In this document: one piece after another, positions 13,477 to 51,042 of the stretch
How positions within the stretch are numbered: the stretch's first letter is position 1
Layout of the letters: every line of letters begins with the position of its first letter
Origin: Pseudomonadota bacterium
GTDB lineage: Bacteria; Pseudomonadota; Alphaproteobacteria; SP197
Direction of reading: 5' to 3'
DNA length: 53,982 bases
Assembly (NCBI GenBank): GCA_027592745.1
Contig: JAQCLG010000003.1
Location: forward strand, 1-53,982
The notes under the pieces: generated by a model
Told to the model about the DNA's origin: nothing
The model's database searches: none
The model's input: only the letters and a program-made list of their open reading frames with translations
Program-made: the position numbers and the translations under genes

Positions 13477-15117
<1,641 letters not shown>

Positions 15118-15142
15118 TCCTCCGGGTCAGAGCGCTACGATG

Positions 15143-15177
15143 GGGCCGCGGCAGAGATGCCGCGGCCCTTTTCGTTT
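15143..15177 (+). terminator. Intrinsic terminator of groESL
   Basis: GGGCCGCGGCA-GAGA-TGCCGCGGCCC followed by TTTTCGTTT. Confidence 0.85.
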
Positions 15178-15220
15178 GAAGGGGCGCGATCCGTTCGATT
15201 GCCACCAGGAGGTGCACATC

Positions 15221-15511
15221 ATGGCCATGAAGAGCCCGCCCCACCCCGGACTTTCGGTCCGTCTCGATTGCCTGGAGCCGCTCGGGCTGACGGTGACCGA
15301 GGCCGCCCGGGGCCTTGGCATCAGTCGCAAGCAGCTCTCCGACATCGTGAGCGTGCGCTCGGGGATCTCGCCCGAGATGGCGATCCGCCTCGACAAGGCC
15401 TTCGGCGGCGGCGCCGAGACCTGGCTGCGACTGCAGACCGCCTACGATCTCGCCCAGGCCATGCAGAGGTCCGACGAGATCAAGGTCGAGAGGCTGACCC
15501 GAGCAGCCTGA
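15221..15511 (+). CDS. higA: HigA/VapI-family antitoxin (orphan)
   Basis: [33 protein letters not shown] and [10 protein letters not shown]; AGGAGG RBS; no intact higB upstream. Confidence 0.9.
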
Positions 15512-15529
15512 CACCGTGGCACCGCTCCG

Positions 15530-15588
15530 CAGAACCTCGGGGTCAGAGCGTTCCCTGGGGCCGCGGTGGCAACACCGCTGCCCTTGTT
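15530..15588 (+). repeat. Diverged second copy of the groEL downstream/terminator sequence
   Basis: cagaacctcggggtcagagcg..tggggccgcgg..GCAA..gccctt matches 15114-15170 ctgatcctccgggtcagagcg..tggggccgcgg..GAGA..gccctt. Confidence 0.75.
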
Positions 15589-15693
15589 CCTTGCCGGCCT
15601 GTCGAACAACTTCACCTGTTCCGGTGCACAGCCCCTTGATCCCGCAGCGTGCGGGCGCTTAACTCCCTCGGCCAGCACTCAGGGAAGCACGCC

Positions 15694-15999
15694 ATGTACA
15701 AGATCGACCCCGCCAAGACCGAGCTCGCCAAGGAGTTCAAGGAGAAGCCCTTCGGCCCGCACAGCGCGGAGCTGCAGAAGGTGCTGAACGTCATGCGCTG
15801 GGAGCCGGTCGAGGGCAAGTACGTGCTGGTCAACACCGTGCCGCACAAGGAATGGTGCCTGGCCCAGCTTCCGGGCAAGCGCGGCGTGCCGATCAAGGTC
15901 CACGAGGACGTCAAGTTCACAGACCTGGGCGAAGCCGAGTGGCACATCTTCAAGATGCGCTGGAAGAAACACACGGGCGCCGACCTGGCGCTCGACTGA
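15694..15999 (+). CDS. N,N-dimethylformamidase small (alpha) subunit-like protein
   Basis: 101 aa, EFKEKPFGPHSAELQKVLNVMR...F.DL.EAEWHIFKMRW pattern, directly upstream of DMFase large subunits. Confidence 0.75.
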   Translation: MYKIDPAKTELAKEFKEKPFGPHSAELQKVLNVMRWEPVEGKYVLVNTVPHKEWCLAQLPGKRGVPIKVHEDVKFTDLGEAEWHIFKMRWKKHTGADLALD

Positions 16000-16013
16000 G
16001 CCCGGCCGATACG

Positions 16014-18251
16014 GTGAACACCGGCTTCGACTACAAACGCCGGGTCCTGGCCTACGCCGATCGCATCAGCGTGCGGCCCGGCGACACGGTCGCCTTCAAG
16101 GTCAGCCTGGAGGATCACGCGCGGTTCGACTTCAAGGTCGTGCGCGTGGTCAACGGCGTCGAGACACCGACGGGCGCGCCCTACAAGGAGGTCGAGGTCG
16201 AGACCTCGGCCGACGGCAGTTATCCCGGCGGCTTCCAGCGGATCGATGCCGGCTCCTACGCCGTGGTGCCGGGTTCGCCCGCGCTCGACCGCCTGTCGAG
16301 CTTCACCTTCCAGTGCTACCTGATGCCGACCCTGCCGGGCGATGGCCGCCAGGTGATCTGCAGCCGCGGCTCCGGGCCCAAGCGGCCAGGTTTTGCCGTC
16401 ATCCTGGACGAGAAGGGCGCGCTGGCGCTGATGGTCGGCAACGGCAAGACGCTGGTCACCGTCTCGACCGGCGTGGCGATGCTGCCCTGGAAATGGGCCT
16501 TCGTCTCGGCGAGCTACGATGCGCAGAGCGGCGAGGTCGAACTCTGGCAGGAGCCCGACGAGCGTTACGTCACGATCGACAGCTTCGCCCACATCACCGG
16601 CAAGGCCCCGACGGGCATCGGCTTCGCGGCCGATCATCCCCTGCACCTGGCGGCCTGGCAGGTCGGCCACCACGAGGACGGGCGGCCACGCATGGCCGGG
16701 CATTTCAACGGCCGCATCGACAGCCCGCGGCTGGCCTCCGAGGTCGTGGTCTGCCACGAGATGAGCAAGCTGGCGCGCACCATCCCGCCGCGCGCGTCCT
16801 GGGTGCTGGGCGCCTGGGACCTGTCGCGCGACATGTCGGGCGACAGCATCGTCGACGTCTCGGGCAACAACCTGCACGGCCGGCTGGTCAACCTGCCGAC
16901 GCGCGCGGTGACCGGCTACCACTGGGACGGTTCCTGCCACGACTGGACGGGCAAACCCGAACACTACGGCGCCATCCACTTCCACGACGACGACCTGCAC
17001 GATGCCGGCTGGCAGACATCAGTGACGCTGACCGTGCCGGAGGGCCTGAAGAGCGGCGTCTACGCCGGGCGCTTCCGCGCCGGCAGGGACGAGGCCTATG
17101 TGCCGTTCTACGTGCGCCCGGCCAGGGGCGCGAAGAAGGCCGCCATCGCCTTCCTGGGCTCGACCGCGACCTACATGGCCTATTCCAACAACCACTGGCA
17201 GCTCGACGAGGAGAAGGCCGAGGTCAAGCGCGGCCGCATCATCGCCTACACGGGCGACGAGCTGTTCCTCAACGAGCGGCGCGACCTGGGGCTGTCGACC
17301 TACGACACCCACCGCGACGGCTCGGGCGTGGTCTATGCCTCGCGCCTGCGCCCGGTGGTGATCAACTTCAACCCGAAGTCGATCATCTGGAGCTTCAACG
17401 CCGATACCCACGTCACCGACTGGATGGAAGCCGAGGGTTTCGACTTTGACGTCGTCACCGACGAGGACATCCATGCCGAGGGCGTGGCGGCGCTGGAGGG
17501 CTACAAGGTGATCGTCACCGGGGCCCATCCCGAATACTGGTCGACGCCCATGTGGGACGCGCTGACCGCCTATTTCGACCGTGGCGGGCGCATGATGTAC
17601 CTGGGCGGCAACGGCTTCTACTGGCGCATCGGCTGGAACGGGGACCTCACCGCCATCGAGATCCGCCGCGCCGAATCGGGCGCGCGCTTCTGGGCCTCCC
17701 TGCCCGGCGAATACCACCAGAGCTTCACCGGCGAGATGGGCGGGCTGTGGAAGCGCATCGGGCGGCCGCCCCAGTCGCTGGTCGGCATCGGCACGTTTGC
17801 CACGGGCTTCGACCGCTGCGGCTGGTTCGAACGCACCGAGGGTTCGCGCGATCCGCGCGCGGCCTGGATCTTCGAAGGCGTCGGCGACGGCCCCATCGGC
17901 AACTTCGGCGTTCTGGGCAACGGCGCTGCCGGCATCGAGCTGGACGGCGTCGACCACGCCCTGGGTTCGCCGCTCGACACCATCGTGCTGGCAAGCTCCA
18001 CCGGCCACTCGGCCTATTACATGCAGAGCCCCGACGAGATCGTCTTCAACCATGCCGCGGTCAACGGCGATGCCAACCCACGGGTGCGCGCCGACATGAT
18101 CTACTACACCCTGCGCTCGGGTGCCGGCATGTTCGCGACCGGCTCGATCAGCTGGGCGGCCAGCGTGGGCCACAACGGCTACGACAACGAGGTCGCACGC
18201 ATCACCGGCAATGTGCTGCGCCGCTTCGCGGGCGAGGAGCCCCTGCCCTGA
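16014..18251 (+). CDS. N,N-dimethylformamidase large (beta) subunit family, copy 1
   Basis: AYADRISVRPG, LamG-like domain, HYGAIHFHDDDL, TATYMAY, GLSTYDTHRDGSGV, HPEY, YLGGNGFYW and GIELD; GTG start inferred. Confidence 0.92.
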   Translation: MNTGFDYKRRVLAYADRISVRPGDTVAFKVSLEDHARFDFKVVRVVNGVETPTGAPYKEVEVETSADGSYPGGFQRIDAGSYAVVPGSPALDRLSSFTFQCYLMPTLPGDGRQVICSRGSGPKRPGFAVILDEKGALALMVGNGKTLVTVSTGVAMLPWKWAFVSASYDAQSGEVELWQEPDERYVTIDSFAHITGKAPTGIGFAADHPLHLAAWQVGHHEDGRPRMAGHFNGRIDSPRLASEVVVCHEMSKLARTIPPRASWVLGAWDLSRDMSGDSIVDVSGNNLHGRLVNLPTRAVTGYHWDGSCHDWTGKPEHYGAIHFHDDDLHDAGWQTSVTLTVPEGLKSGVYAGRFRAGRDEAYVPFYVRPARGAKKAAIAFLGSTATYMAYSNNHWQLDEEKAEVKRGRIIAYTGDELFLNERRDLGLSTYDTHRDGSGVVYASRLRPVVINFNPKSIIWSFNADTHVTDWMEAEGFDFDVVTDEDIHAEGVAALEGYKVIVTGAHPEYWSTPMWDALTAYFDRGGRMMYLGGNGFYWRIGWNGDLTAIEIRRAESGARFWASLPGEYHQSFTGEMGGLWKRIGRPPQSLVGIGTFATGFDRCGWFERTEGSRDPRAAWIFEGVGDGPIGNFGVLGNGAAGIELDGVDHALGSPLDTIVLASSTGHSAYYMQSPDEIVFNHAAVNGDANPRVRADMIYYTLRSGAGMFATGSISWAASVGHNGYDNEVARITGNVLRRFAGEEPLP

Positions 18252-18252
18252 C

Positions 18253-20481
18253 ATGATGAAGCTGCTTTCCTACACCGACCGGCTGTGGGCGCGCGCCGGG
18301 CAGACCGTGACCGTCCATGCCAGCGCCGAGGGGTTCGACAGCCTGGAGGTCGACCTGGTGCGCCTGGTCTGCGGCGACGACAGCCCCGCGGGTCCGGGAT
18401 ACCGGCTGGAGCCGGTGGCCGGCACGCAACAGACCGTGCCGGCGGCCTTCCAGGCGATCCACGCCGGCTCCTGCATCCTGGCCGACGATGCCGCAGGCCT
18501 GCGCTGCCTCGACGACGCGACGGTGCAGATCCTGGTGTGGCCGACCACCCCGTCGGACGCCGAACAGGCGGTGATGGGCATCTGGGATGCCACGACAAAG
18601 GCGGGCTTCCTGCTCTCGATCGGGCCGGACGGCGCGGCGCTGACGACCGGCGACGGCGACACGGTGAGCCGGGTCGCCACGGGTGCGGCGCTGACCGCGC
18701 GCGAGTGGTATCTGATCGCGGCCAGCCACGACGCCGTCAACGGCATGCTGCGGATCGCCCAGCACCCGCTCAACCGCGACGGACGCGGCGAAAGGCCGCT
18801 GGTGGCGCTTGCCGACAAGGCGGTGGCGCCCCGGGCCGCAGAAGGCACACCGCTGATGGTCGGCGCGGCATGGGGTGGCCCCGGCCATGCCGACGGCCTG
18901 CGCCCCGTGATGTGCTTCAACGGCAAGGTCGAGGCGCCGCGCGTGCTTGGCCACTACGAGACCGATCTTGCCGGGCTCAACGAGGCCGGCAGCATTCCCC
19001 CGGCCGCGCCCGGCATTGCGCTTGCCTGGGATTTCTCGCGCGCCATGACGAGCCTGCGGGTCGAGGATGTCTCGGGCAACGGGCGTCACGGCCGCACCGT
19101 CAACCTGCCGACCCGCGCCATGACCGGGCACGACTGGACCTCGCAGGAACACGACTGGCGCCATGCGCCCGAGCAATACGGCGCGATCCACCTGCACGAC
19201 GACGACCTGGGCGACGCCGGCTGGCAGGAGAGCGCGCAGATCGTGCTGCCTGAGGGCCTGCGCAGCGGCATCTACTGCATCCGCCTCGCGGGCGGCGGCC
19301 ATGAGGACATGCCGCCCATCGTGGTGCAGCCGCCGCGCGGCGGGCCGACCGCGGCCATCGCCTTCCTTTCCTCGACGGCGACCTACCAGACCTACGCCAA
19401 CATGCACCACAGCACGGATGACGCGGGCGCCGAGATGCGCTCGGCTTCCGCGACGATCCTGTCGCCCTCCGACGTCCACCTCTTCGAGCATCGCAAGCTG
19501 GGCCATTCGCCCTACGACACCCATGGCGACGGCAGCGGCGTGAGCGTGGCGAGCGCGCGCCGGCCGATGCTGGGCTACCGGCCAAAGGCCGGGCTGTGGA
19601 GCTTCAACGCCGACACCCATGTCACCGCCTGGCTCGACGATTGCGGCTTTGCCTGGGATGCGATCAGCGACCACGCGCTGCACGACGAGGGCCTGGCGCT
19701 GCTGGCGCCCTACAAGGTGGTCGTCACCGGCACCCATCCCGAATACTGGTCGAGCGCCATGTGGCAGGCGATGACCGCCTATCTCGATGGCGGCGGCCGG
19801 CTGATGTACCTGGGCGGCAACGGCTTCTACTGGCGCATCGCCTTCCATCCCGCGGCGCCCTGGGCGCTGGAGATCCGCCGGGCGCAGGCTGGCGCGCGCT
19901 ACTGGATCGCCGAGCCGGGCGAGTACCACATGGCCTTCTCGGGCGAACTGGGCGGCCTGTGGCAGCGCATCGGCATCGCGCCGCAGCAGCTTGTCGGCAT
20001 CGGCACCGTGGCGACGGGCTTCGATTCCTGCGGCTGGTACGAACGCCTGCCCGACAGCTTCGATCCGCGCGCAGCCTGGATCTTCGAGGGCGTCGGGCCT
20101 GAGGAGAAGATCGGCGATTTCGGCCAGCTCGGCGGCGCAGCGGGACTCGAACTCGACTGGGTCGACCGCACGCTGGGCACACCGTCGCACTGCCTGCGCC
20201 TGGCCAGCTCCGCGGGCCATTCGCACCAGTACCTGCAGACCATCGACACCATGACCTTCAACCACACCGCGGTCGCGGCCCCGGTCAACCCCGCGGTGCG
20301 CGCCGACATGGTGTTCTTCGAGACGCCCCGGGGCGGCGCCGTGTGGTCGACCGGCTCGATCGCCTGGGCCGCCAGCCTTGCCGCCAACGGCTATGACAAC
20401 AACGTCGCCCGCGTCACGGGCAACGTGCTGCGCCGTTTTGCCGATTCCGCACCGATCGAAAGAGGGAAGCCAGGACCATGA
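18253..20481 (+). CDS. N,N-dimethylformamidase large subunit family, copy 2
   Basis: YGAIHLHDDDL, TATYQTY, SPYDTHGDGSGV, GTHPEY, YLGGNGFYW and GLELD; starts 1 bp after the copy 1 stop. Confidence 0.92.
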   Translation: MMKLLSYTDRLWARAGQTVTVHASAEGFDSLEVDLVRLVCGDDSPAGPGYRLEPVAGTQQTVPAAFQAIHAGSCILADDAAGLRCLDDATVQILVWPTTPSDAEQAVMGIWDATTKAGFLLSIGPDGAALTTGDGDTVSRVATGAALTAREWYLIAASHDAVNGMLRIAQHPLNRDGRGERPLVALADKAVAPRAAEGTPLMVGAAWGGPGHADGLRPVMCFNGKVEAPRVLGHYETDLAGLNEAGSIPPAAPGIALAWDFSRAMTSLRVEDVSGNGRHGRTVNLPTRAMTGHDWTSQEHDWRHAPEQYGAIHLHDDDLGDAGWQESAQIVLPEGLRSGIYCIRLAGGGHEDMPPIVVQPPRGGPTAAIAFLSSTATYQTYANMHHSTDDAGAEMRSASATILSPSDVHLFEHRKLGHSPYDTHGDGSGVSVASARRPMLGYRPKAGLWSFNADTHVTAWLDDCGFAWDAISDHALHDEGLALLAPYKVVVTGTHPEYWSSAMWQAMTAYLDGGGRLMYLGGNGFYWRIAFHPAAPWALEIRRAQAGARYWIAEPGEYHMAFSGELGGLWQRIGIAPQQLVGIGTVATGFDSCGWYERLPDSFDPRAAWIFEGVGPEEKIGDFGQLGGAAGLELDWVDRTLGTPSHCLRLASSAGHSHQYLQTIDTMTFNHTAVAAPVNPAVRADMVFFETPRGGAVWSTGSIAWAASLAANGYDNNVARVTGNVLRRFADSAPIERGKPGP

Positions 20482-22694
20482 AGAGACTGCTGGGCTATTG
20501 CGACGAGATCCGTGTCCGCCCGGGCCAGACCATCAACTTCAAGGTCTCCAGCGAGGATGCCGGCAAGTTCCGCCTGGACATCGTGCACGTTCGCAGCGGC
20601 GACGACACGCCGTCGGGCCCCGGCCTGAAGGAACGCGTGGTCGATGCCGCGGTCAACGGCAGCTTCCCGGCGCGCTACCAGTGGACCCAGGTCGGCAGCT
20701 ACGTGGCGGTCGAGAATACCGCGCCCTTCGCCCTGCAGAGCTTCACGCTGCAGTGTTTCATCTGGCCGACCCTGCTGGAGAAGGAGGACCAGGTCCTGAT
20801 GGGCGCCTTCAACCGGGCCGACAAGGCGGGGTACGCCCTGGCGCTGGAAAACGGCCAGGTGGTGCTGCGGATCGGCGACGGCAAGAGCGTCGAGACCCTG
20901 GCCTCCGGCGCGGCGATGGACCAGCACCGCTGGTATTTCGTCGCGGCAAGCTTCGATGCCGAGAGCGGCAAGGCCCATGTCGTGCAGGAACCCCTGCTGC
21001 GCTACGCCGGCGATCGCGGCAAGGCGAGCGTGGAAGGCACCATGAAGCTGCGTCCGGGCGACGGCGGCCGTTTCCTGATCGCAGCCTGCAACGACCGGCG
21101 CGAGGGAAAGCTCATCGCCGCCGCCCATGCCAACGGCCGCATCGATGCCGTGACCGTGGCCAGCCGCGTGCTCTCGCGCGCCACGATGGAGCGCCTGAAG
21201 GGCCGCAGCGTGCCGCGCGACATCGCCAACGACGTCGTCGCCATGTGGGACTTCTCCAGGGAGATGGACGGGGTCGTGGCCCATGACGTCTCGGTCAACC
21301 GGCACCACGGCGCCATCGTCAACATGCCGACGCGCGCGACCAAGGGCTGGAACCACGACGGCAGCGAGATGGTCTGGACCCACAAGCCCGAGCACTATGG
21401 CGCGATCCATTTCCACGACGACGACGTCTATGACTGCGGCTGGGAGACCGACGCCTCCTGGACCCTGCCCGACGACATCGCAAGCGGCACCTACTGCGCC
21501 CGCCTGACCCAGGGCGACCAGTGGTTCTACATCCCCTTCTACATCCGCCCGCACACCGGCAAGCCCAAGGCGCGCCTGGCCCTGCTGATCGCCACGGCGA
21601 GCTACTACGCCTACGTCAACAACCACATGGGCGTGAGCTGGGGACCGCTGGGCGAACACTGCAGCAACGGCTTTGCCGTGCTCGACAATATCGATCTGCA
21701 CCTGCACATGCATCCCGAGCACGGCGTCTCGATGTACGACTTCCACAACGACGGCTCGGGTGTGGCCTATGCCTCGCGCCTGCGCCCGTTCCTGCACATG
21801 GGGCCGCGCGACAGCCTGTGGCAGTACAACGCCGACACGCACATCACCGACTGGCTGGAGGAGAAGGGCATCGCCTTCGACGTCATCGTCGACGAGGACA
21901 TGCACGAGGAAGGCGTCAGCCTGCTCGAGCACTACGACTGCGTCATGACGACGACCCATCCCGAGTACTACACGACCGAGATGATGCATGCCCTGCTGCA
22001 CTACCAGGACCGCGGTGGGCGTTTCATCTACATGGGCGGCAACGGCTTCTACTGGCGCGTCGCGTTCAATCCGAAGATGCCGGGCGCCATGGAGATGCGC
22101 CGCGCCGAGGACGGTATGCGGAGCTGGATCGCCGAGCCGGGCGAATACTACATGAGCTTCACCGGCGAACTGGGAGGCCTGTGGCGGCGCAACGGCATCG
22201 CGCCCGAGGCAATCTGCGGCACCGGCTTCTCGGCCCAGGGCTTCAATGCCGGGCGGCCCTATTACCGCATGCCCGACAGCGAGAACCCGCGTGCCGCCTG
22301 GATCTTCGACGGCATCGGGCGCGACGAGCCGATCGGGGATTTCGGCACCGTGTTCGGCGCCGCGGCGGGCAGCGAGATCGACAGCGTCGACTTCGAGATC
22401 GGCACGCCGCCCCACACCCTGGTGGTCGCCCATGCCGACGACTTCGGCGTCGACTTCCACTGGGTCAAGGAGGAGCACCAGCATGCCCACTCCGCGGTGA
22501 ACGGCGAGAACAACCCCCATGTCATCTGCGACATGGTGTTCTACGAGACCCCCAACGGCGGCGCGGTCTTCTCGACCAGCTCCATCGCCTTTGCCGGATC
22601 GCTCGCCCACAACAACTACGACAACAACGTCTGCCGCCTGCTGGAAAACGTGGTCACGCGCTTCTGCGACCCCGAGCCGATCCCGGCCCCCTGA
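20478..22694 (+). CDS. N,N-dimethylformamidase large subunit family, copy 3
   Basis: YGAIHFHDDDV, TASYYAY, SMYDFHNDGSGV, HPEY, YMGGNGFYW and GSEID; ATGA overlap with copy 2. Confidence 0.92.
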   Translation: MKRLLGYCDEIRVRPGQTINFKVSSEDAGKFRLDIVHVRSGDDTPSGPGLKERVVDAAVNGSFPARYQWTQVGSYVAVENTAPFALQSFTLQCFIWPTLLEKEDQVLMGAFNRADKAGYALALENGQVVLRIGDGKSVETLASGAAMDQHRWYFVAASFDAESGKAHVVQEPLLRYAGDRGKASVEGTMKLRPGDGGRFLIAACNDRREGKLIAAAHANGRIDAVTVASRVLSRATMERLKGRSVPRDIANDVVAMWDFSREMDGVVAHDVSVNRHHGAIVNMPTRATKGWNHDGSEMVWTHKPEHYGAIHFHDDDVYDCGWETDASWTLPDDIASGTYCARLTQGDQWFYIPFYIRPHTGKPKARLALLIATASYYAYVNNHMGVSWGPLGEHCSNGFAVLDNIDLHLHMHPEHGVSMYDFHNDGSGVAYASRLRPFLHMGPRDSLWQYNADTHITDWLEEKGIAFDVIVDEDMHEEGVSLLEHYDCVMTTTHPEYYTTEMMHALLHYQDRGGRFIYMGGNGFYWRVAFNPKMPGAMEMRRAEDGMRSWIAEPGEYYMSFTGELGGLWRRNGIAPEAICGTGFSAQGFNAGRPYYRMPDSENPRAAWIFDGIGRDEPIGDFGTVFGAAAGSEIDSVDFEIGTPPHTLVVAHADDFGVDFHWVKEEHQHAHSAVNGENNPHVICDMVFYETPNGGAVFSTSSIAFAGSLAHNNYDNNVCRLLENVVTRFCDPEPIPAP

Positions 22695-22727
22695 CGATCC
22701 CGCAGGCGGATCATCCCCGACCGCCGG

Positions 22728-22760
22728 ACGGGGCGTCGCGCAAGCGGCGCCCCGTTTGTC
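22728..22760 (+). terminator. Hairpin ending the DMFase operon
   Basis: ACGGGGCGTCGC-GCAA-GCGGCGCCCCGT followed by a short T tract. Confidence 0.6.
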
Positions 22761-22970
22761 CTGGCACGCCCTGGGCGCCGCGGAAGCCTGGTGGCTGCCA
22801 CAAGCGCAGCCCCGCTGGCAACCAAGTTTTTTGCCCAATGCATCAAATATAGTCGCGCCAACGAAGACGACCGCAGAGCGATACAAAAACCATGCGAATA
22901 TCGTTGAGTCCTTGAGATTCTTCAATATATCGCCTGCACATCATTGGGTGACTGCGCATTGCATCGACCA

Positions 22971-22992
22971 GGATCAATATTACAATTGATCC
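22971..22992. promoter_or_regulatory. Putative operator palindrome upstream of the Rieske gene
   Basis: Perfect GGATCAAT-N6-ATTGATCC in an AT-rich intergenic tract about 80 bp before the ATG. Confidence 0.5.
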
Positions 22993-23074
22993 AATCTATT
23001 GGTTCGTATTGTTTCATGACAGGTGACAAGTCGCCCTCTCCCGGAGCAGCTTCCTGGCTAAGGAGGACCATGCC

Positions 23075-24253
23075 ATGGCCGAACAGGATCCCAGACATGA
23101 CCTTCGGGCACGCCCCGGCGATAACGGGGAGCCGTGGACCACGCTTCCTGCGTGGGTCTACGACCATCAAGAACTTTACGAACTTGAGCTCGAAGAGATC
23201 TTTTACCCCGGCTGGCATATCGTGTGTCACGCCAGCGAAGTGCCGGATGCCGGCAGCTACATGACGTTCGATCTTGGTATCGAGCATTGCCTGGTCATAC
23301 GCGACCGCGACATGGAGCTGCGCGCCTTCCACAACGTCTGCCGCCATCGCGCCCATCCGCTGGTGAGCAGGCGGGAAGGCAAGTGCCGGGGCCGGCTGAC
23401 CTGTCCCTACCATGGCTGGACCTATGGCCTGGACGGCGCGCTGCGCATCGTGCCGGCCGACGAGAGCTTCCCCGACATGGACAAGGCCGACTAGGGCCTG
23501 GAGCCGGTCGAACTCGATACCCTGTTCGGCTTCGTCTTCGTGCGCTTCCGTCCGGGCGGGCCGGATCTGGCGGCCTGGGCGGGCATCGATCCGGCCCAGG
23601 TGGCGCCCTACAAGCTGGAGGACGTCCGACCGATCCGGAAGATCTGGGCCAAGCCCCTGGCGGCCGACTGGAAGAACGCGATGGACAACTACCAGGAGTC
23701 CTATCACGTCCCCGCCGGCCACCCCGGCCTGAACGACCTGGTCGATGCACCCGACAGCGACGATCTCAAGATCAGCACGACACGCTCGGCGCGCTGGAGC
23801 GTGGGTCATTACCAGAGCCTGCTGCCCGATTTCCCGCACCTGCCGCCGGAGCTGCAGCGCACCTGGCGCCTCCTGTCGATCCTGCCGAACATGGCGCTCG
23901 ACCTCTATCCCGACATGATGGATTTCTTCCAGATCCTGCCGGCCGGCCCGGGCAAGTGCATCATCCGCAGCGGCGCCTACGCCCTGCCCGACGAACGCCG
24001 CGAGGCCAGGGCCGCGCGCTGGCTCAACGAGCGGATCAACGCCCAGGTGCAGGAAGAGGACAACGACCTGACCCTGGCGGTGCAGCGCGGCCTGCGTTCG
24101 TCGAGCAACAGCGTCGGCGTGCTCTCGACCAAGGAAGTCTGGCTCAAGCAGTTCCAGGACCCGATCCGCGCCAAGGTGCCGGTGACGCGCCTGGAGGAGC
24201 CGCCCGATCCCGGCACCATGGCCACGCTCAACGCGCAGCTTGCTTCGCTTTAG
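23075..24253 (+). pseudogene. Rieske non-heme iron oxygenase alpha subunit (GbcA/Stc2/CntA-like) with in-frame TAG at 23492-23494
   Basis: NVCRHR and CPYHGW Rieske ligands, then DKAD*GLEPVELDTLFGFVFV continues in the same frame into DWK..DNYQESYHV..GHPGL and QEED iron ligands. Confidence 0.85.
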
Positions 24254-40012: not shown

Positions 40013-41515
40013 TCAGGCGCGGCGGTGCTCGGGGCCGTTGGGCTCCAGGCGGATGCCTTCGCGCAGATGGCGATAGTCCAGCCCGACCAGGCGGCAGGGA
40101 TGCTCGCCCGGCGATTCGACGACGATGGTGCGCGCCGCGATGGGATCGTAGTCGGCGCGGAAGTGGACGGTGCTTTTCACGACCAGGATCTTCTGCTCGG
40201 TGGGTTCGACGCCGATGTGGCGGAAGCAGGCCTGGTCGAGGTTCTGGAAGCGGCGGCTGGAGACCACGATGCGGACATCGCAATCGGCGCCGACCACCGA
40301 AAGCACCGCCATGGGACCGAGATGGGCCGTGGCGCCGCGATACATCTCGCCGGTGCAGGGAAAGATGCCGTCGCTCAGCGCCTCGACCTTGAAACGGGCG
40401 CGGAAGGGATGCTGGCCGGGCCGTCCCGACTTGCCGCCGAGCGGCGCATCGAACTCCGTGCCGATGCCCTGGGCATGGGCCTCGCGCGCCACCTCGGCGT
40501 CCCACAGCAGCCCGAGTGCGGCCTTGCACGCGTGGTTGCGCACGAGGGCCTCGAGCACGCCGACGGTGTCGGAGGTGCCGCCCGCACCCGGGTTGTCCTG
40601 GGCATCGGCCAGCACGATGGGACCCGATGGCGCGGCCATGGCCGCCTGCACGGCCTCGTCCTCCGACATCATGGCATTGTCGAAATCGCCCTCGGCCTCG
40701 ATGAAGGCGCCCATCAGCATGTCGACGGCGCGCTGCGCGACGGCGGGATCGGGATCGTAGGCGACCGCGGCAGGGCCGCATTCGAGAATGTCGGCGGGCG
40801 GGAAGGCCAGGGCTAGGTCGACGCAGGCGGTGCCTTCCAGCTCCAGCCCGGTCACCATGTCGTAGAACCCGCGGTTGGGCCGGGCGTCGGTCCACTGCGC
40901 GGTGAGCGGCACCAGGAACGGCGACTTGCGGAACCCCTTGGCCATCTTCTCGCCGGCCAGCAGACGCTGCAGCAGGCGATAGACGCGCTGGCCGGTCTGT
41001 TCCATGTCGACATGGGGATAGGTGCGGTAGATCGACATGGCGTCGGAAACTGCCACCATGCGCTCAGTGATGTTGGCATGGAGGTCGAGGCTGTTGACCA
41101 GCGGCACGCCGGAACCGATGACCTTGCGCACCCGCGCCAGCGTCTCACCCTCGCCGTCCTGGTGATGCTCGACCGCCATGGCGCCGTGCAGGTCGAGGAA
41201 GACCGCGTCGACGGGGCCGGCCTTCTGCAGTTCCTCGACCATCATGCCCGTGATGCGCTCGAAGGCATCCTCTGTCACGTAGGAGGAGGGTTCGGCCGAG
41301 GCCCAAGTCAGGGGCACCAGTTCGTGACCGTCGGCGCGGGCGGCCTCGATGAAACCCCAGAGGGCGAGGTTGATGCCGGCCACCGCATCGAGCAGCTCGG
41401 GGCCGCGCACCAGGCCCGGCCAGGCATCCTGCATCTCGAACTCCGCGAAACCCGCGTTGGTCGAGGCAAAGGTGTTGGTCTCGTGCTGGAAACCGCCGAC
41501 TGCGATGCGCGCCAT
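40013..41515 (-). CDS. M81/MlrC family metallopeptidase
   Basis: HETNTF, LDLHGAM, DGEGE, LDLHAN, YRTYPHVD, DNPGAG and VVKSTVHFRA. Confidence 0.93.
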   Translation of the reverse strand: MARIAVGGFQHETNTFASTNAGFAEFEMQDAWPGLVRGPELLDAVAGINLALWGFIEAARADGHELVPLTWASAEPSSYVTEDAFERITGMMVEELQKAGPVDAVFLDLHGAMAVEHHQDGEGETLARVRKVIGSGVPLVNSLDLHANITERMVAVSDAMSIYRTYPHVDMEQTGQRVYRLLQRLLAGEKMAKGFRKSPFLVPLTAQWTDARPNRGFYDMVTGLELEGTACVDLALAFPPADILECGPAAVAYDPDPAVAQRAVDMLMGAFIEAEGDFDNAMMSEDEAVQAAMAAPSGPIVLADAQDNPGAGGTSDTVGVLEALVRNHACKAALGLLWDAEVAREAHAQGIGTEFDAPLGGKSGRPGQHPFRARFKVEALSDGIFPCTGEMYRGATAHLGPMAVLSVVGADCDVRIVVSSRRFQNLDQACFRHIGVEPTEQKILVVKSTVHFRADYDPIAARTIVVESPGEHPCRLVGLDYRHLREGIRLEPNGPEHRRA

Positions 41516-41607
41516 GAAATCCTCCCGTCAGGCGGCCGGATCGTCGCCCGACAGGCCGCCGCTGTCCATGACCGAAAGGCGTTGCGGCCTGCGCCGGCTT
41601 CCCGGCC

Positions 41608-42861
41608 TCAGGCCAGCGGTTCGAGGTTGGCGCCGTGGCGGATGCGCCGGCGCGCGCCCTCCTCTGCCTGCGCATCGCGCTGCGGTCCGGCGAGCGCGAC
41701 CATGCGTTCGGCGCGGAAGTTGCCGTAGACCGGTTCGGGTTCGCCCTCCAGGCCCAGGGCGCGGACGCGGGCCGGGTTCTCGATCTTGCGCGTGACGTGG
41801 TCGGCGTGCTGGGCGGCCAGCTCGTCGGCCGAGAAGGGTTCCAGGTGGATCGCGCCCGCCGCCGCGGCCTCGGCCACCAGCTTCTCGCCGGCCTTCGTGC
41901 GCGCGATGAAGAGGTTGGCGCCGCCAGCTTCCTCGTGGATCGGCTTGCCATCGACCATGACCCAGGAATCGGGACAGGAGACATCGGCCAGTTCGCCGAT
42001 CGCGTCCGGGCAGATCTTGCAGCGGAACTGGATGTCGTATTTCCAGGGCTTGCGCTCGTCGTACCAGACCTCGTCGTAGGAGAGGTCGAAGACGCGGCCG
42101 TCATGGGTTTCCGTATGGGTCGGGCCGGGCCAGCCGTTGCCGCGCCAACGGAAGACCGAGACCTCCTGCGCGGCGACGCCATGGTAACCCGCGACCTTGC
42201 GCGCGGTCTGTTCGGTCGGCAGGCCGCCGCAGAAGATGGTGATGAGGAAGGGCACCTGGGTTTCGACCCGGGCATCGATCCTGCCGAGATTGCGGATCGC
42301 GGCGACGTCGCAGGGTTTGGCCAGAACGGCAAAACGCAGGCCCTGGTCGAGCAGGTCCATGACATGGCGCAGCGGTGCCGCCGGGCCGTAGCGCGACTGC
42401 GCACCGGAGCGGACTTGCGCCGGCGTGCGGCTGACCAGGGCATCGGTCTCGAAGGGTTGTTCGGTCGAGGCGCGGACCTGGACCACGGCATCGACCTGGC
42501 CGGTTTCCAGCAGGTAGCAGCCCAGCGCGGTCATGGCGCCGCCGGCAGCCGAGGCAAATCGCAGGTCCTCGTCGGTCGACCAGCCCCGCGCCATGGTGCG
42601 GATCGGGCCCCAGATGTCGTGCATCTGCCCCTTGTCGGCGACCTGTTCGGGATCGGGTCCGGTGACGGTGATGCCGGGGCAGACGGCGCGGATCCTGTCC
42701 ATGGTCGCCTCGTCCAGCTCCTCGCGGACCTGCGGGCGCATCTGGGAGTAGGAGGTGAGCTGCATCTCGACCCGCTCGCGCCCGGCAATCGATTCGCACA
42801 GGCCGCAGGAGGCGCACAAGCCATGGGCGACGATGGTCTGGAGATCGGGAAACGCGGTCAT
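41608..42861 (-). CDS. FrhB/FdhB family (F420 hydrogenase beta-like) Fe-S flavoprotein
   Basis: CASCGLC, VCPG, AAGGAMT, QSRY, KPCD, IFCGG and RCKICPD..GELADVS..DSW. Confidence 0.88.
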   Translation of the reverse strand: MTAFPDLQTIVAHGLCASCGLCESIAGRERVEMQLTSYSQMRPQVREELDEATMDRIRAVCPGITVTGPDPEQVADKGQMHDIWGPIRTMARGWSTDEDLRFASAAGGAMTALGCYLLETGQVDAVVQVRASTEQPFETDALVSRTPAQVRSGAQSRYGPAAPLRHVMDLLDQGLRFAVLAKPCDVAAIRNLGRIDARVETQVPFLITIFCGGLPTEQTARKVAGYHGVAAQEVSVFRWRGNGWPGPTHTETHDGRVFDLSYDEVWYDERKPWKYDIQFRCKICPDAIGELADVSCPDSWVMVDGKPIHEEAGGANLFIARTKAGEKLVAEAAAAGAIHLEPFSADELAAQHADHVTRKIENPARVRALGLEGEPEPVYGNFRAERMVALAGPQRDAQAEEGARRRIRHGANLEPLA

Positions 42862-42888
42862 GGGGACTCTCAGGGCTGGCAGGCGCGA

Positions 42889-45114
42889 TCAGGCGATGGC
42901 GCGGGCTGGCGGGCGGGAGGCATCGAAACCCTCGAAGGGCGCGGGGTCCAGGAAGCGGCGCACGACATTGCCCATCAGGCGGGCGACGTTGTTGTCGAAG
43001 CCGTTGACCGGGAGCGATCCGGCAAAGGCGATGGAGCCGGTGGAGAACACGGCCCCTCCCCCCTCGATCTCGAAGAAGGTGATGTCGGCGTGGACGAACG
43101 GGTGGCCGTGGCCGATGACCGGCTGGTTGGAGGTCATCTCCTCGGTCACCACCAGCATGCCCTCGCTGTGGCCGAAGGAACGGGCCAGCACCAGGGTGTG
43201 GGCCGGCGTGCCCAGGGCGACATCGGCGCGGTCGAGTTCCAGGCCCGCGGCGCCGCCGCCGACAAGGCCGAAGTCGCCGATGACCTGCTCGTCGATGCCC
43301 TCGAAGATGAAGGCCGCGCGCGGGTCGGCGGCATCGGGCAGGCGGCGGTAGGGGCTGGAGAAATCGAAACCCTGGGCGGTGAAGCCGACCCCGGTGAGCG
43401 CCTGGGGCGTGCGCCCGCTGCGCCGCCACAGGCCGCCGTACTCGCCGGTGAAACTCATGAAGTATTCGCCGACCTCGGCGACCCAGGAGCGCGTGCCGCC
43501 CTCGGTCTTGCAGCATTCGATGACGCCCGGTTTGCTCGGATGGTAGGCGATGCGCCAGTAGAAGCCGTTGGCGCCGGTGTAGATCAGCCGTCCGCCGCGC
43601 TGCGTGTAGGCCGCGATGGCGTCGAGCATCTCTGCCGTGTGGTATTCGGGATGGGTGCCGGTGACGACCATGCTGTAACCGTCGAGCACGCCGACACCCT
43701 CGGCATGCAGCTCCTCGTCGGTGACGACATCGAAGGCAAAACCCTCGTGCTCCATCCAGGAGAGGATGTGGGTGTCGGCAGCCAGGCCCCAGACGCGCAC
43801 GCGCGGGCGCATGTTGAGCACCGGGCGCAGGCGCGAGCTGATGCTGACGCCGCTGCCGTCCGAATGGGTGTCGTAGGTCGAGAGGCCATACTCGCTGTGG
43901 GCCTGCAGGAAACAGTCGGCCCGGGTCATCACCGTGGCGCGGAACTGCTTCATCTCCACCGCATCGTTGCGGAAATGGCGGCCGGAATTGGCATAGGCCA
44001 TGTAGGTCGCGGTCGAGAGCAGGAAGCAGATCGGCGCCTGGCGCGTGCCGCGCGGCGGCACCACGGCGAAGGGCACGAACTCCTCGCCGTCCTCGCAGGT
44101 CAGCTGCAGGGCGTAGAGGGCGCTGCGCGTGCCGGCCGGCACGGTCCAGCGATGGCTCTCGTCCCAGCCGGCGTCATAGACATCGTCGTCGTGGAAGTGG
44201 ATCGCGCCGTACTCGGCCGGTGCATGGCGCCAGCACATCTCGCGCCCGCTCCAGCCCGCGCCGCGCACCGCCCGTTCGGGCAGGTGGACGGTCTGCCCAT
44301 GGTGGCCGTTGCCGCTGACATCTTCCAGGTGCTCGCCGGAGATGCCGCGGGAGAAGTCCCAGGCCGCAACCACGGCAGCGCCGCCGTCACCGGCGATCTC
44401 CGCCGCATCCAGAGCGCGGGACGACAGGCGCGGCGCCTCGATGCGGCCGTTGAAGCAGCCGTCATGGTAGCCGCGGCCGTCCTCGTGGGCACGGTGCCAG
44501 GCGGCGATCAGCAGAGGCCCCTCGCGCCCGACGGGATCGAGGGTGAGGACCCGGCGCACGACGACGCCGCGGCCACCGTCGAGCGGTTCCTGGCGCAATT
44601 CCACGGTGGCCGTGCCGGCATCGAAGCTCGCCGAGACGCGGTACCAGGCGCGCGCCACCATGGGCACGCCGGTGGTCACGACCGTGCTCGCCCGGCCATC
44701 GCCCGCGATCAGGCCCAGGGCGCCATCGTCGCCGACGATCAGGCTGGTTCCGGTGTGGCTGCTCTGCGACCAGGTACCGAGGATGGCCTGCCTGCCCTTG
44801 TCCGGGGTCGTGGGCATGACCAGGGCCTGCAGGGTGAGGCTGGCGCAGGCAAAGGCGGGCGAGGCCGGCACGAGGCCGTGGGAGCCGGCATGGATCACCT
44901 GCGGCCGCCCCGGATGGCGACCCTCCAGGGCCGAAACCACGGGCTCGGCACGGAACGGCGCACCGCGCGGGTTGTCGTCGGCGCAGACCAGGCGGACGAC
45001 CCGCGTGTCGTGGGCCTCCGGCCCCTCGCAGCTGACGTGGAAACGGATGGTCTCGCCGGGCCGGACCGAGATGCGGTCGCTGTAGGCGTTGAGCGGGCGG
45101 TGCCCTATTTCCAC
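42889..45114 (-). CDS. N,N-dimethylformamidase large subunit family, copy 4
   Basis: AYSDRISVRPG, YGAIHFHDDDV, TATYMAYAN, GLSTYDTHSDGSGV, GTHPEY, GANGFYW and GLELD. Confidence 0.92.
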   Translation of the reverse strand: MEIGHRPLNAYSDRISVRPGETIRFHVSCEGPEAHDTRVVRLVCADDNPRGAPFRAEPVVSALEGRHPGRPQVIHAGSHGLVPASPAFACASLTLQALVMPTTPDKGRQAILGTWSQSSHTGTSLIVGDDGALGLIAGDGRASTVVTTGVPMVARAWYRVSASFDAGTATVELRQEPLDGGRGVVVRRVLTLDPVGREGPLLIAAWHRAHEDGRGYHDGCFNGRIEAPRLSSRALDAAEIAGDGGAAVVAAWDFSRGISGEHLEDVSGNGHHGQTVHLPERAVRGAGWSGREMCWRHAPAEYGAIHFHDDDVYDAGWDESHRWTVPAGTRSALYALQLTCEDGEEFVPFAVVPPRGTRQAPICFLLSTATYMAYANSGRHFRNDAVEMKQFRATVMTRADCFLQAHSEYGLSTYDTHSDGSGVSISSRLRPVLNMRPRVRVWGLAADTHILSWMEHEGFAFDVVTDEELHAEGVGVLDGYSMVVTGTHPEYHTAEMLDAIAAYTQRGGRLIYTGANGFYWRIAYHPSKPGVIECCKTEGGTRSWVAEVGEYFMSFTGEYGGLWRRSGRTPQALTGVGFTAQGFDFSSPYRRLPDAADPRAAFIFEGIDEQVIGDFGLVGGGAAGLELDRADVALGTPAHTLVLARSFGHSEGMLVVTEEMTSNQPVIGHGHPFVHADITFFEIEGGGAVFSTGSIAFAGSLPVNGFDNNVARLMGNVVRRFLDPAPFEGFDASRPPARAIA

Positions 45115-46106
45115 ACCGCCTCCGCGACCCGCATGAAGTTGCCGCCCAGGATGGCGACGACATCGTCCTCCTTGTACTGGCGGCGCAGCAGTTCCTCGGT
45201 CAGTTCGAGGATCTGGCGGGGATGGGCGCAGTCGACCGAGGGATAGTCGTACTGCGCCTTGGGCCAGTAGTCGGGCGCCGATTCCAGCACCGAACCCAGG
45301 CCCTCGTCGCCGCCCTCGCTCTCGAAGGCGTAGTCGAGGCCAATGCCGACGTGGGAGGGGCCCACCAGATTGACGTAGTGATCGATGTGGTCGGCCAGGG
45401 TCGCGGTGCGGATGTCGTTGTTGCCGAGGAAGATGCCGATGCCGACGATGCCGACGACACCGCCTGTCGCCGCGCAGGCCTTGACCTGGTCATCGTAGAT
45501 GTTGCGCTCGTGATCCCACAGCTCGCGCGAGTTGGAGTGGGAGAAGATGCAGGGCGCGCTGGAAAGCGCCATCGCCTCCATGGTCGTGCGGTGGGAACAG
45601 TGCGAGAGGTCGACGATCATGCCCAGCCGGTTCATCTCGCCGATCACCGCCCGGCCGAAGTCGGAAAGACCCTCGTTGCCGTTGTGGCAGCCGCCGCCGG
45701 CCAGGTTGTTCTTGTTGTAGGCGAACAGCATCTGGCGCACGCCCAAGGCATGGTAGAGCTCGACCATGTCGAGAGAGCCGTCGAGGCAGTTCATGCCTTC
45801 CAGATCGAAGGTGACGGCAAGGTCGCCGTCCTTCTTGGCCTGCCGGACCTCGGCGACCGAGGTCACGAGGCGGTAGCCGTCCGTGGCGCGGATCCAGCGG
45901 CGGAAGGCGGCCAGCGACTTGACGGTCATGCGCCAGTCCATGACGTCGTAGCCGACATCGATGGAGAGATAGTCGACACCCGCGTCCTTCCAGATCTGCA
46001 GCTTGGAGAGATCGACCGAGGGATCGGGGCCGAAACCGGCATGGTCGTCCCAGACGACGTGGTTCTCGAACAGCCGCCTGGCGGCGGCCTGGGGATTGTC
46101 CGGCAT
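45105..46106 (-). CDS. Membrane dipeptidase (M19) family amidohydrolase, second copy
   Basis: WDDH, FDLEG, AYNKNN, MNRLGMIVDLSH, FSHSN, HERNI, HVGIGLD and LGGNF; GGAGG RBS. Confidence 0.9.
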   Translation of the reverse strand: MPDNPQAAARRLFENHVVWDDHAGFGPDPSVDLSKLQIWKDAGVDYLSIDVGYDVMDWRMTVKSLAAFRRWIRATDGYRLVTSVAEVRQAKKDGDLAVTFDLEGMNCLDGSLDMVELYHALGVRQMLFAYNKNNLAGGGCHNGNEGLSDFGRAVIGEMNRLGMIVDLSHCSHRTTMEAMALSSAPCIFSHSNSRELWDHERNIYDDQVKACAATGGVVGIVGIGIFLGNNDIRTATLADHIDHYVNLVGPSHVGIGLDYAFESEGGDEGLGSVLESAPDYWPKAQYDYPSVDCAHPRQILELTEELLRRQYKEDDVVAILGGNFMRVAEAVWK

Positions 46107-46269
46107 GAAACCCTCCTGCATCGGGGGGCAGTCTAGACCTGCCCCGGCCGGCTTGACGAGGGGGAGCATGTCGCCCCGGGGACCAGTTTCGGCTTGGCCT
46201 GCGGGCCTGGCCGCGGCAGGATCGAACAGGGAGCCGGCAGACGCCGTGATGCCATCAGGGGAGACGACC

Positions 46270-47784
46270 ATGACCGTTCTGGAGACCTTCAAGCAGCTTT
46301 CGGGCGCCATCCATCTGGACGGCGCGTTGCGCAAGAGCGCGGCGACCGAGGGTTTCGACGGCATCGATCCGGCGACCGAGGAGGTCACCGGCGAACTGGC
46401 CTATGCCAGGGTCGAGGAGGTCGACGAGGCGGTCGAGGTCGCCCGGCGTGCCCAGCGCGAGTGGAACCGCATGAACATGCTCAAGCGGTCCGAGCTGCTG
46501 CACGAGGTCGCCCAAAAGTTCCGCCACAACGTCGGCAAACTCGCCGAGGCGCTGACCCGCGAGATGGGCAAGCCCTACAAGGAATCGGCCGACGAGGTGG
46601 AGTGGACCGCCACCGCCTTCGACTACTACGCCGAGATCGCGCGCCACGAGAACGGCCGCGTCGTGGGCCCGGTGGTCGACGGCCAGTTCCACGTCGTCAC
46701 CAAACACCCGCTCGGCGTCGTCGGCATCATCCTGCCGTTCAACTTCCCCTATGTGCTGTTCGGCTGGGAGGCCGGTGCGGCGCTGGGCGCGGGCAATGCG
46801 GTGATCCTGAAGCCTTCCGAACTCACCAGCTTCTCCTCGCTGATGATGATGGAGTGTTTCGACCACCTGCCGCGCGGCCTGGTGCAGTGCATCACCGGCG
46901 CGGCCGAGGTCGGCAAGCGGCTCGTGGGCCACGAGGGCGTCGACGGCGTCGCCTTCACGGGCTCGATCCCGGCGGGCCAGGCGGTCGCCCAGACCTGCGC
47001 GACGACCTTCAAGCGCTGCCTGGTCGAGGCCTCGGGCAACGATCCCTTCATCGTCATGCCCTCGGCCAAGCTCGACATGGCGGCCCAGGGCGCGGTGTTC
47101 TCGGCCTATCTCAACTGCGGCCAGGTCTGCGCCGCGGCCGAACGTTTCTACATCCACGCCGAAGTGCACGACGCCTTCGTCGAGGAGACGGTGAAGCTGA
47201 CGCGGAAGCTGCGCATCGGCAACGGCCTCGACAAGGTCGACATCGGGCCGATGGCCGCGCAGCGCGAGCGCGACCGCTACGAGGGCCTGCTGGCCCGCGC
47301 GATCGACGGCGGCGCGAAGGTGGCGACGGGCGGCGGTCGCCCTGACGGCTTCAACAAGGGCTACTTCTGCGACGCCACGATCCTGACCGACTGCACGCCC
47401 GACATGGAGATCCTCAACACCGAGAGCTTCGGCCCGGTGATGCCGATCTGCCGCGTCGGCAGCTTCGACGAGGCGCTGGAACACGCCAACCGCTCGAAGT
47501 ACGCGCTGGGTTCGTTCATCTACACCAACGACCTCAGCGAGACGATGCGTGCGCTCGAGGAGCTGGAGGCCGGCATGACCTGGGTCAATTCCAGCTCCCT
47601 GCTCGACAACGACGCCGGCCCCTTCGGCGGGCGCAAGATGTCAGGCACGGGACGCCAGCTCGGCTCGGAAGGCATCGACCAGTTCCGCCACAGCAAGTTC
47701 TCGATGATCGACCACGAGAGCAAGCCGGCCGACTTCTGGTGGTATCCCTACAAGGACGCCGAGGCCTACAAGGGCAAGCGCTAG
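46270..47784 (+). CDS. Aldehyde dehydrogenase family protein
   Basis: PFNFP, LKPSE, FTGS, EASGND, NCGQVC, ESFGP and PFGGRKMSG. Confidence 0.93.
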   Translation: MTVLETFKQLSGAIHLDGALRKSAATEGFDGIDPATEEVTGELAYARVEEVDEAVEVARRAQREWNRMNMLKRSELLHEVAQKFRHNVGKLAEALTREMGKPYKESADEVEWTATAFDYYAEIARHENGRVVGPVVDGQFHVVTKHPLGVVGIILPFNFPYVLFGWEAGAALGAGNAVILKPSELTSFSSLMMMECFDHLPRGLVQCITGAAEVGKRLVGHEGVDGVAFTGSIPAGQAVAQTCATTFKRCLVEASGNDPFIVMPSAKLDMAAQGAVFSAYLNCGQVCAAAERFYIHAEVHDAFVEETVKLTRKLRIGNGLDKVDIGPMAAQRERDRYEGLLARAIDGGAKVATGGGRPDGFNKGYFCDATILTDCTPDMEILNTESFGPVMPICRVGSFDEALEHANRSKYALGSFIYTNDLSETMRALEELEAGMTWVNSSSLLDNDAGPFGGRKMSGTGRQLGSEGIDQFRHSKFSMIDHESKPADFWWYPYKDAEAYKGKR

Positions 47785-50957: not shown

Positions 50958-51042
50958 CGCTGCTCCCCCGGATGGCCTGCGTCAGACGGCGCTGCCGGCA
51001 CGGGATGACCGCACCGGCAGACGCCAGCCTGGCAACGGACGA

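Follow-up and report, generated by a model that had tools for sequence, protein, structure and literature searches.

How many catalytic partners can one small subunit serve? The question is raised by a locus in a 53,982-nucleotide stretch of DNA, referred to below as the window, which is a single contig (JAQCLG010000003.1 of assembly GCA_027592745.1; contig C32) of the 3.85-Mb, 263-contig, 99% complete genome, of about 69% G+C, of an uncultured aquatic alphaproteobacterium. In this locus, one gene for a small (alpha) subunit of the dimethylformamidase (DMFase) type, here called S, is followed by three genes for large (beta) subunits of the same family, L1, L2 and L3. To our knowledge, DMFase has hardly been known except as a curious enzyme that acts on a synthetic solvent, N,N-dimethylformamide (DMF). 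The reading favoured here, with fair though far from complete confidence, is that of a conserved operon in which one short alpha subunit is shared by three anciently diverged and catalytically competent beta subunits, each with its own pocket, acting on natural amides and not in a DMF pathway.

Anatomy of the operon and its occurrence among relatives

The four genes are co-directional, tightly packed open reading frames on the plus strand (Table 1). S and L1 are separated by 14 bp, L1 and L2 by 1 bp, and L2 and L3 share a 4-bp ATGA overlap, so that the tight coupling described in the initial annotation is confirmed by the coordinates of the reading frames; its anatomy of one alpha gene and three intact, diverged beta genes is likewise upheld by reading frames and homology. 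L010, the nearest relative, has the same GTG start for L1, and in three more remote loci (L013, L014, L016) an ATG stands two codons off the same position. The single hairpin said to close the operon is also present. The 76-nt stretch that contains it has a minimum free energy of -41 kcal/mol (z -2.78), and none of 200 shuffled sequences folds equally well. It probably acts as the operon terminator, missed by a simple terminator scan because its T tract is weak. The groEL gene upstream (13477-15117) is closed by a strong terminator of its own (15142-15169), from which a separate promoter for the operon is to be expected. A promoter scan recognised no sigma-70-like promoter upstream of S, and an Rfam scan of positions 15100-23200 returned no riboswitch or other Rfam family.

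Table 1. Features of the operon in the window, with the evidence for each (ORF, open reading frame).
Feature	Coordinates	Strand	Evidence
Intergenic stretch 5' of S, presumed promoter region	15512..15693	+	inferred
S, short DMFase-type small (alpha) subunit, 101 aa	15694..15999	+	ORF, profile, profile-profile, fold
L1, DMFase-family large (beta) paralog 1, 745 aa, GTG start	16014..18251	+	ORF, PF20254, 6lvb_A
L2, DMFase-family large paralog 2, 742 aa	18253..20481	+	ORF, PF20254, 6lvb_A
L3, DMFase-family large paralog 3, 738 aa	20478..22694	+	ORF, PF20254, Laminin_G_3, 6lvb_A
Stem-loop at operon end: 12-bp GC-rich stem, GCAA loop, then GUUUGU	22728..22755	+	folding

A scan with an S profile, one genome per species, found 260 relatives, the best 80 loci of which were taken for analysis. 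In the tree of S, 26 of these 80 loci form one clade with the window S (27 rows; Shimodaira-Hasegawa-like approximate likelihood-ratio test, SH-aLRT, 95). Five of the 26 (L010-L014), with proteins 70-92% identical to those of the window, have the order S-L1-L2-L3, and one of these five, L013, is a complete long-read chromosome. Twelve (L016-L023, L025-L027, L029) have S-L1-L3, two (L015, L030) S-L1 with remnants of L3, and four (L031-L034) S-L3 only; in the last three (L009, L024, L028) the contig breaks off within 1 kb downstream of S. L1 orthologues are present in 19 of the loci and L2 orthologues in five. The full S-L1-L2-L3 order also occurs in three genomes of the taxonomic family survey described below (G002, G019, G031). 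Among the 54 loci outside the clade, no S is followed by two large genes: in 45 of them S is followed at once by one large gene, and the nine without a called large gene comprise two contig ends, two split large genes, two odd arrangements and three loci (L035, L038, L043) in which S has no large gene within 8.6-10 kb downstream. Two loci (L079, L056) hold two small and two large genes, one S pointing towards the end of a large gene instead of lying upstream of it. L030 and L031 share an isolate label; L030 consists of S-L1 and a 31-aa remnant of L3, L031 of a second S with L3 directly behind it. If the two come from one organism, L3 moved along with its own copy of S.

All four genes are under purifying selection. 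Across six species pairs the ratio of nonsynonymous to synonymous substitution rates (dN/dS) ranges from 0.05 to 0.38, with 0.08-0.26 for S, 0.05-0.35 for L1, 0.09-0.34 for L2 and 0.07-0.38 for L3.

Large subunits outnumber small ones well beyond the operon. The genome carries 10 full-length large-subunit genes (39-48% mutual identity) and four S genes; outside the operon, the three S-bearing loci are ordinary alpha-beta pairs or, on contig C187, an in-frame fusion of S to a large subunit. In the same taxonomic family, 31 of the 32 other genomes have 2-13 large genes, and in other families of the class a large-subunit gene occurs in only 4 of 28 genomes. The totals for the 33 genomes of the family are 250 large against 119 S matches, about one small per two large, and among the matches listed at least 24 of the 33 genomes have two or more adjacent large genes and at least seven have three. 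A sister genus has operons of its own, in which an S 61-64% identical to that of the window is followed by three (L092, G010:C67; L093, G003:C12) or two (L094, G007:C20) large genes. These large genes are not orthologous to L1-L3, being 48-54% identical to any paralog of the window genome; in the tree the first two betas of these operons are sisters (support 99) and the third belongs to another lineage. Such a non-orthologous operon in a sister genus implies that one-alpha, several-beta operons arose more than once. Translation confirmed the in-frame fusion in two species (C187 15791-18310 of the window genome, G000, and L082 5390-7909, minus strand; open frames of 859 and 840 aa), and at least 10 family genomes have a single open frame with both an S and a DMFA2_C match. 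The window itself holds a fourth DMFase-like large paralog without a small subunit, on the minus strand at 42934-45099. Its companions in a cluster on that strand are an M19 dipeptidase (45105-46400), an FrhB/FdhB-like gene (41608-42888) and an M81/MlrC peptidase (40013-41527), and a PotD-like ATP-binding cassette transporter (48677-52362) is close by, a composition that points to amide or peptide catabolism.

Identity and descent of the subunits

The small subunit is recognisable only by sensitive comparison. As a single sequence, S matches the DMFase small chain 6lvb_B weakly, with an expectation value (E) of 0.8, and its identity needed profile and fold comparisons. A profile of 22 S homologues searched against the Protein Data Bank (PDB) found 6lvb_B (E 1.2e-4) and no other match, and hhalign aligned S 9-93 with residues 42-127 of Paracoccus aminophilus DmfA1 (94%, E 1.4e-7). 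An AlphaFold 2 model of S, with a predicted local distance difference test score (pLDDT) of 91.7, has as its top three Foldseek matches 6lvb_B, 6lvv_B and 6lvd_B; the superposition on 6lvb_B (E 1e-4) gives a template-modelling score of 0.72 and a root-mean-square deviation of 1.6 Å over 86 columns, and the next, unrelated fold follows at E 0.17. S has no match in the Pfam copy used, which is without PF26354, or in the NCBIfam copy, where none of L1, L2 and L3 has a match either; homologues of S do carry PF26354. On the strength of profile and modelled fold, S is a true but short homologue of the DMFase small subunit. It has 101 aa, most homologues have 99-103 aa, and DmfA1 proteins have 132-141 aa. 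The missing part is N-terminal: the alignments begin at residue 39 of the 6lvb_B chain and residue 42 of DmfA1, leaving about 35 residues absent. In the Paracoccus enzyme the N-terminal helix of the small subunit wedges between two large subunits and touches domain II (PMC7686228). Since the alignments start near residue 40 of the solved chain, S is without this wedge-helix part.

The large subunits, by contrast with S as a single sequence, are unmistakable members of their family. The domain PF20254 (DMFA2_C) matches L1, L2 and L3 with E-values of 2e-88, 3e-81 and 9e-87 and with 297.7, 274.4 and 292.3 bits against a curated cut-off of 27; L3 also matches Laminin_G_3 (E 4e-8). All three align end to end with the large subunit of DMFase, 6lvb_A (E 5e-145, 5e-149 and 5e-149), in a single colinear stretch that pairs L1 11-745, L2 5-738 and L3 4-736 with chain residues 6-762 and so spans the whole three-domain architecture. 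The solved acylase 8huy_A is matched as well (E 9e-131, 7e-119 and 5e-140). Among themselves the three have diverged far, with 49% identity between L1 and L2, 45% between L1 and L3 and 42% between L2 and L3.

Structural work on Paracoccus DMFase identified Y399, Y440 and E521 as the iron ligands and H519 and N547 as essential, placed F693 of a neighbouring large subunit in the pocket, and found the large subunit by itself inactive and less stable (PMC7686228). Counted along the alignment of L1 with 6lvb_A, with the ligand numbers taken from that paper, Y390, Y430, H505, E507 and N533 of L1 are the equivalents of Y399, Y440, H519, E521 and N547, and in L2 the corresponding residues, Y381, Y421, H495, E497 and N523, are invariant. 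The same five positions are 100% conserved within each clade (20 members for L1, six for L2, 22 for L3), and the E-(L/I)-D motif shows no variation across 54 members of the family. The iron-binding tyrosine equivalent to Y399 is the second tyrosine of T/A-x-Y-x-x-Y. The motifs named in the initial annotation are thus all present and invariant among L1, L2 and L3, and the segments that follow the first iron-binding tyrosine do diverge strongly in the alignment, as it had described. With iron ligands, histidine and asparagine all retained in all three, each beta is predicted to be a catalytically competent mononuclear-iron (Tyr/Tyr/Glu) amidohydrolase.

Where did three such genes come from? Beta trees were built from 106 rows with FastTree and from 48 rows with IQ-TREE under the posterior mean site frequency (PMSF) model. 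L1 and L2 come out as sisters in both, with support of 95 and a long-branch warning in the former and an SH-aLRT of 91 in the latter, and by these trees L2 is probably the sister of L1. Nearest to the pair is the clade of a paralog from contig C52. L3 has a different place in the trees, together with a gammaproteobacterial gene that stands beside an S (support 100), and this group next joins two further S-adjacent genes and the S-fused paralog of contig C187 (support 98), so that its nearest outgroups are the S-adjacent L041, L045 and L068 and the S-fused C187. Forcing L1, L2 and L3 into a single clade, a constraint suggested by the finding itself and tested after the tree had been seen, costs 209.7 log-likelihood units (approximately unbiased, AU, test, p 8e-8). 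The array is therefore not a local triplication, and in-situ triplication of the betas is rejected at that p-value. Of the earlier description as three tandem paralogs, what stands is that the genes are tandem, diverged and intact; a shared local origin does not. L3 would derive from an older beta lineage, ancestrally paired with an alpha, and L1 and L2 would be probable duplicates of another lineage. In this history an alpha-paired gene of the L3 type and a gene of the L1 type would have come to lie behind one alpha, with L2 added later and in part of the clade only. L2 orthologues (at least 71% identical) are found in eight of the 33 genomes of the taxonomic family, namely in all three of the window genus and in five of 23 of the largest genus.

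Proposed sharing of the small subunit and differentiation of the large ones

If one alpha serves this array, it would act as the common structural partner of all three betas. S would dock in domain III by strand addition, onto the loop and strand next after the first iron-binding tyrosine. Having no wedge helix of the kind seen in true DmfA1, it would place no constraint on the pairing of betas with each other. That the alpha is shared by all three appears to us somewhat the more probable state of affairs. The comparative evidence comes from the clade of S, which holds the small subunits of L1L2L3, L1L3, L1-only and L3-only operons alike: a small subunit from this one orthogroup immediately precedes a lone L3 in four species and L1 in the others. 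The structural evidence comes from a model of S with L2, the pair modelled, chosen as the least obvious. Its interface score, ipSAE, is 0.84, 0.84 and 0.87, and the best of three controls reached 0.00; the mark used for this score is reached by 58 of 80 solved complexes and by two of 110 mismatched pairs. Between runs, at least 91% of contacts recur, and the pLDDT of the partners is at least 89. In the predicted interface mainly residues 388-414 of L2 are engaged, paired with the first strand of S (43-49). The proposal of the initial annotation, that several betas share the alpha, thereby gains from S-L3-only operons, from the S-adjacent and S-fused kin of L3, from S-L fusions, from an S+L2 model that exceeds its controls, from the independent S-plus-three operon of a sister genus and from the small number of S genes relative to large ones in the family, and loses from the divergence of the segment on which docking is predicted.

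This and several other observations weigh against the proposal and have to be set beside it. The predicted docking segment, L2 388-414, is the part most different among L1, L2 and L3; pairing through the backbone of a strand would tolerate such divergence. No sequence signature within it separates alpha-dependent from alpha-less betas, the segment being of equal length and without an indel in both, so that alpha-less paralogs have a docking segment of the same length. A complex like the one modelled has been solved (6lvb), and the result for S with L2 therefore shows likeness, not binding, and may reflect memory of that entry. Four of the 10 large genes in the genome, the one at 42934-45099 of the window and those on contigs C69, C177 and C213, have no S gene upstream, and the solved acylase entries 8huy, 8i59 and 8i5a contain no S-like chain by the S profile; alpha-less betas and an acylase without a small chain together mean that alpha-independence is possible in the beta family. 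The set of genes has not been held together everywhere, either. L3 is reduced to fragments in L015 and to a 31-aa remnant in L030 and carries a frameshift in L012, and an unrelated FlgJ/Bax-like gene lies between L2 and L3 in L011 and L012; decay and insertion show that the gene set is not obligatory. The inserted gene (L011 14789-15889; L012 about 15250-16220) encodes 366 aa with a glucosaminidase-type motif of the FlgJ/Bax kind, judged by eye. Finally, gene neighbourhoods differ between species and give no clue to the substrate.

The same observations feed a competing account, in which the alpha pairs with the adjacent L1 only, and L2 and L3 are alpha-independent homodimers, acylase-like, that merely share its promoter. 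Large paralogs without an upstream S make up four of the 10 in this genome, the acylase entries have a large chain only and the S profile matches just 6lvb_B, L3 scores the acylase (E 5e-140) nearly as well as DMFase (E 5e-149), and the segment predicted to contact S is the least conserved part among the three. The account is nonetheless unlikely. It has to explain why the same S orthogroup stands directly before L3, without L1, in four species, why the relatives of L3 are S-adjacent or S-fused, and why the model of S with L2 passes its controls; the Paracoccus large subunit alone, moreover, is inactive and less stable (PMC7686228). Sharing of one alpha by all three betas thus remains the preferred reading.

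What, then, distinguishes the three betas? In the alignment, 234 columns reach 90% conservation or more in every one of the three clades; 82 of them differ between clades, 19 three ways. The differing columns are densest at 6lvb positions 675-699 (11 columns) and 400-449 (10 columns), the former being the loop whose F693 enters the pocket of the neighbour. Position 693 is Phe in L1 and in five of six L2 sequences, and His in 22 of 22 L3 sequences. As far as conserved residues can tell, this pattern fits three maintained, different substrate pockets. The operon would then make three amidases of different specificity for natural amides, not a DMF pathway; distinct specificities and natural substrates of the betas are suggested by these comparisons, and natural amides are the likelier substrates because the beta family already holds an N-acetyl-beta-phenylalanine acylase. 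The narrower classes put forward in the initial annotation, N-formyl and N-acyl amines, find no support in the locus, and the neighbourhoods vary among species. That the betas are not orthologues of the solvent-degrading enzyme is well founded, L1 being only 37.7% identical to DmfA2 of the P. aminophilus plasmid pAMI2 and true DMFases (Paracoccus, Methylobacterium) standing on a separate long branch in both trees.

Differences concentrated in a loop that reaches into the neighbouring pocket invite a further possibility: unlike betas could form mixed dimers around a common alpha, each pocket being completed by the partner's 675-699 loop, with more than three specificities as the outcome. Besides the 11 clade-specific columns in that loop and the F/F/H pattern at position 693, the translational coupling of the genes and the lack in the short S of an N-terminal helix wedging between large subunits would suit such assemblies. 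An identity of only 42-49% among L1-L3 speaks against them, as do the operons with L1 alone and with L3 alone, from which it follows that each beta must work without the others; we regard mixed dimers as distinctly improbable. In its fullest form, equally doubtful, the short alpha would be an exchangeable adaptor, the betas would assemble combinatorially as mixed dimers with up to six active-site environments, and the deficit of alpha genes would reflect sharing in trans.

Alternatively, the copies could be redundant isozymes or partly silent genes without functional differentiation. Decay of L3 in L012, L015 and L030 and the absence of L2 from most of the clade (present in only the eight family genomes mentioned above) lend this a little weight, which does not go far against dN/dS values of 0.05-0.38 for each copy across species, 82 columns conserved within and different between clades around the active-site loops, and paralogs that are old (42-49% identical), one of them, L3, of another lineage; redundancy is very improbable. 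Could the array instead be a product of assembly, through collapse or chimeric joining of paralogs in a metagenome-assembled genome? The 263 contigs and 10 paralogs might raise the suspicion, yet such an artefact is ruled out for practical purposes by the same order in five other species, one a complete chromosome, and in the three genomes named above, and by contigs of other sequencing runs that bridge the junctions S/L1 (X1, X2, X5), L1/L2 (X1 and, from another study, X4) and L2/L3 (X1, X2). The bridging contigs, taken from Logan, are short and none spans the whole operon; joints at 90% likeness, often cross-matches between paralogs, were set aside. Runs that contain the DNA come from aquatic and estuarine habitats, and the listing of runs included no RNA data set. 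The arrangement is real and conserved.

Neighbouring genes and known relatives of the system

The surroundings of the operon in the window consist of groEL, his genes, a major facilitator superfamily (MFS) gene, a HigA-like gene, a broken Rieske oxygenase, TauD and a flavoprotein of the old yellow enzyme (OYE) type. Of these, some relatives have only the upstream MFS-his-groEL block in common with the window, and TauD and OYE are shared with L010 only. A functional tie to groEL was considered and rejected: the gene is a housekeeping copy, 97% identical in L009 and L010, with its own strong terminator. Between that terminator and S lies an orphan gene of the HigA/XRE helix-turn-helix type (15221-15511, plus strand, about 96 aa) with a good ribosome-binding site; no HigB-like partner was seen for it, and it was not detected at the same place in related loci. 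Downstream, preceded by an AT-rich stretch (about 22820-23010), a gene for the alpha subunit of a Rieske-type ring-hydroxylating oxygenase (23071-24253, plus strand) is broken by an in-frame TAG at 23492-23494, with the Rieske domain (23075-23491) and the catalytic domain (23495-24253) in the same frame. The gene is missing in the closest relative, L010, where TauD directly follows L3, and it is likely either a recent insertion that is now a pseudogene or the site of a sequencing error.

The closest characterised systems are the DMFases of Paracoccus sp. DMF (6lvb; PMC7686228) and of P. aminophilus pAMI2 (L089), which belong to the same two-subunit family and have the small gene immediately upstream of the large one. 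The likeness extends to a large subunit of identical three-domain layout, which aligns colinearly for about 735 residues and has the same Tyr/Tyr/Glu and His/Asn residues, and to the shared fold of the small subunit. The differences are equally plain. DMFase is an alpha2beta2 enzyme from one alpha and one beta gene; here one alpha gene faces three beta genes. L1 is not an orthologue of DmfA2, S is without the N-terminal wedge-helix region, and L3 has His where DMFase has F693. The locus, moreover, is chromosomal, in uncultured aquatic bacteria, and not on the plasmid of a solvent degrader, and no LuxR regulator is adjacent. The operon is, in short, a real and conserved variation on a known two-subunit enzyme system.

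A second point of comparison is the N-acetyl-(R)-beta-phenylalanine acylase (8huy, 8i59, 8i5a), a full-length homologue of L1, L2 and L3, which shows that the large-subunit family hydrolyses amides beyond formamides. Its entries hold the large chain only, unlike the window operon, which is headed by an alpha gene. Multiplicity of large subunits has been noticed before. In the part of a preprint accessible to us (10.1101/2021.03.18.435917), 216 of 952 genomes have several copies of K03418 that belong to different clades, small subunits turn up in far fewer (41 genomes), and the maximum is nine large copies, compared with 10 in the genome studied here and up to 13 in its relatives; that part makes no mention of one-alpha tandem arrays or of this bacterial family. 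Another paper mentions the DMFase gene in passing only (PMC10308929), and no description of multi-beta operons was found in the literature searched, a body of text to which most subscription journals and supplements do not belong.

The structural study of DMFase described its two folds as "of unknown evolutionary origin" (PMC7686228). The locus and its relatives now place the iron amidase family in a natural setting, that of one group of uncultured aquatic Alphaproteobacteria, where one small subunit gene often heads two or three catalytic paralogs that are old and kept by selection. They provide a testable system for the natural substrates of this family, for the role of the small subunit and for the use of one accessory protein by several catalytic partners. 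They also offer ready-made sequence diversity around the rare iron site of two tyrosines and one carboxylate, for the biocatalysis of stable amides.

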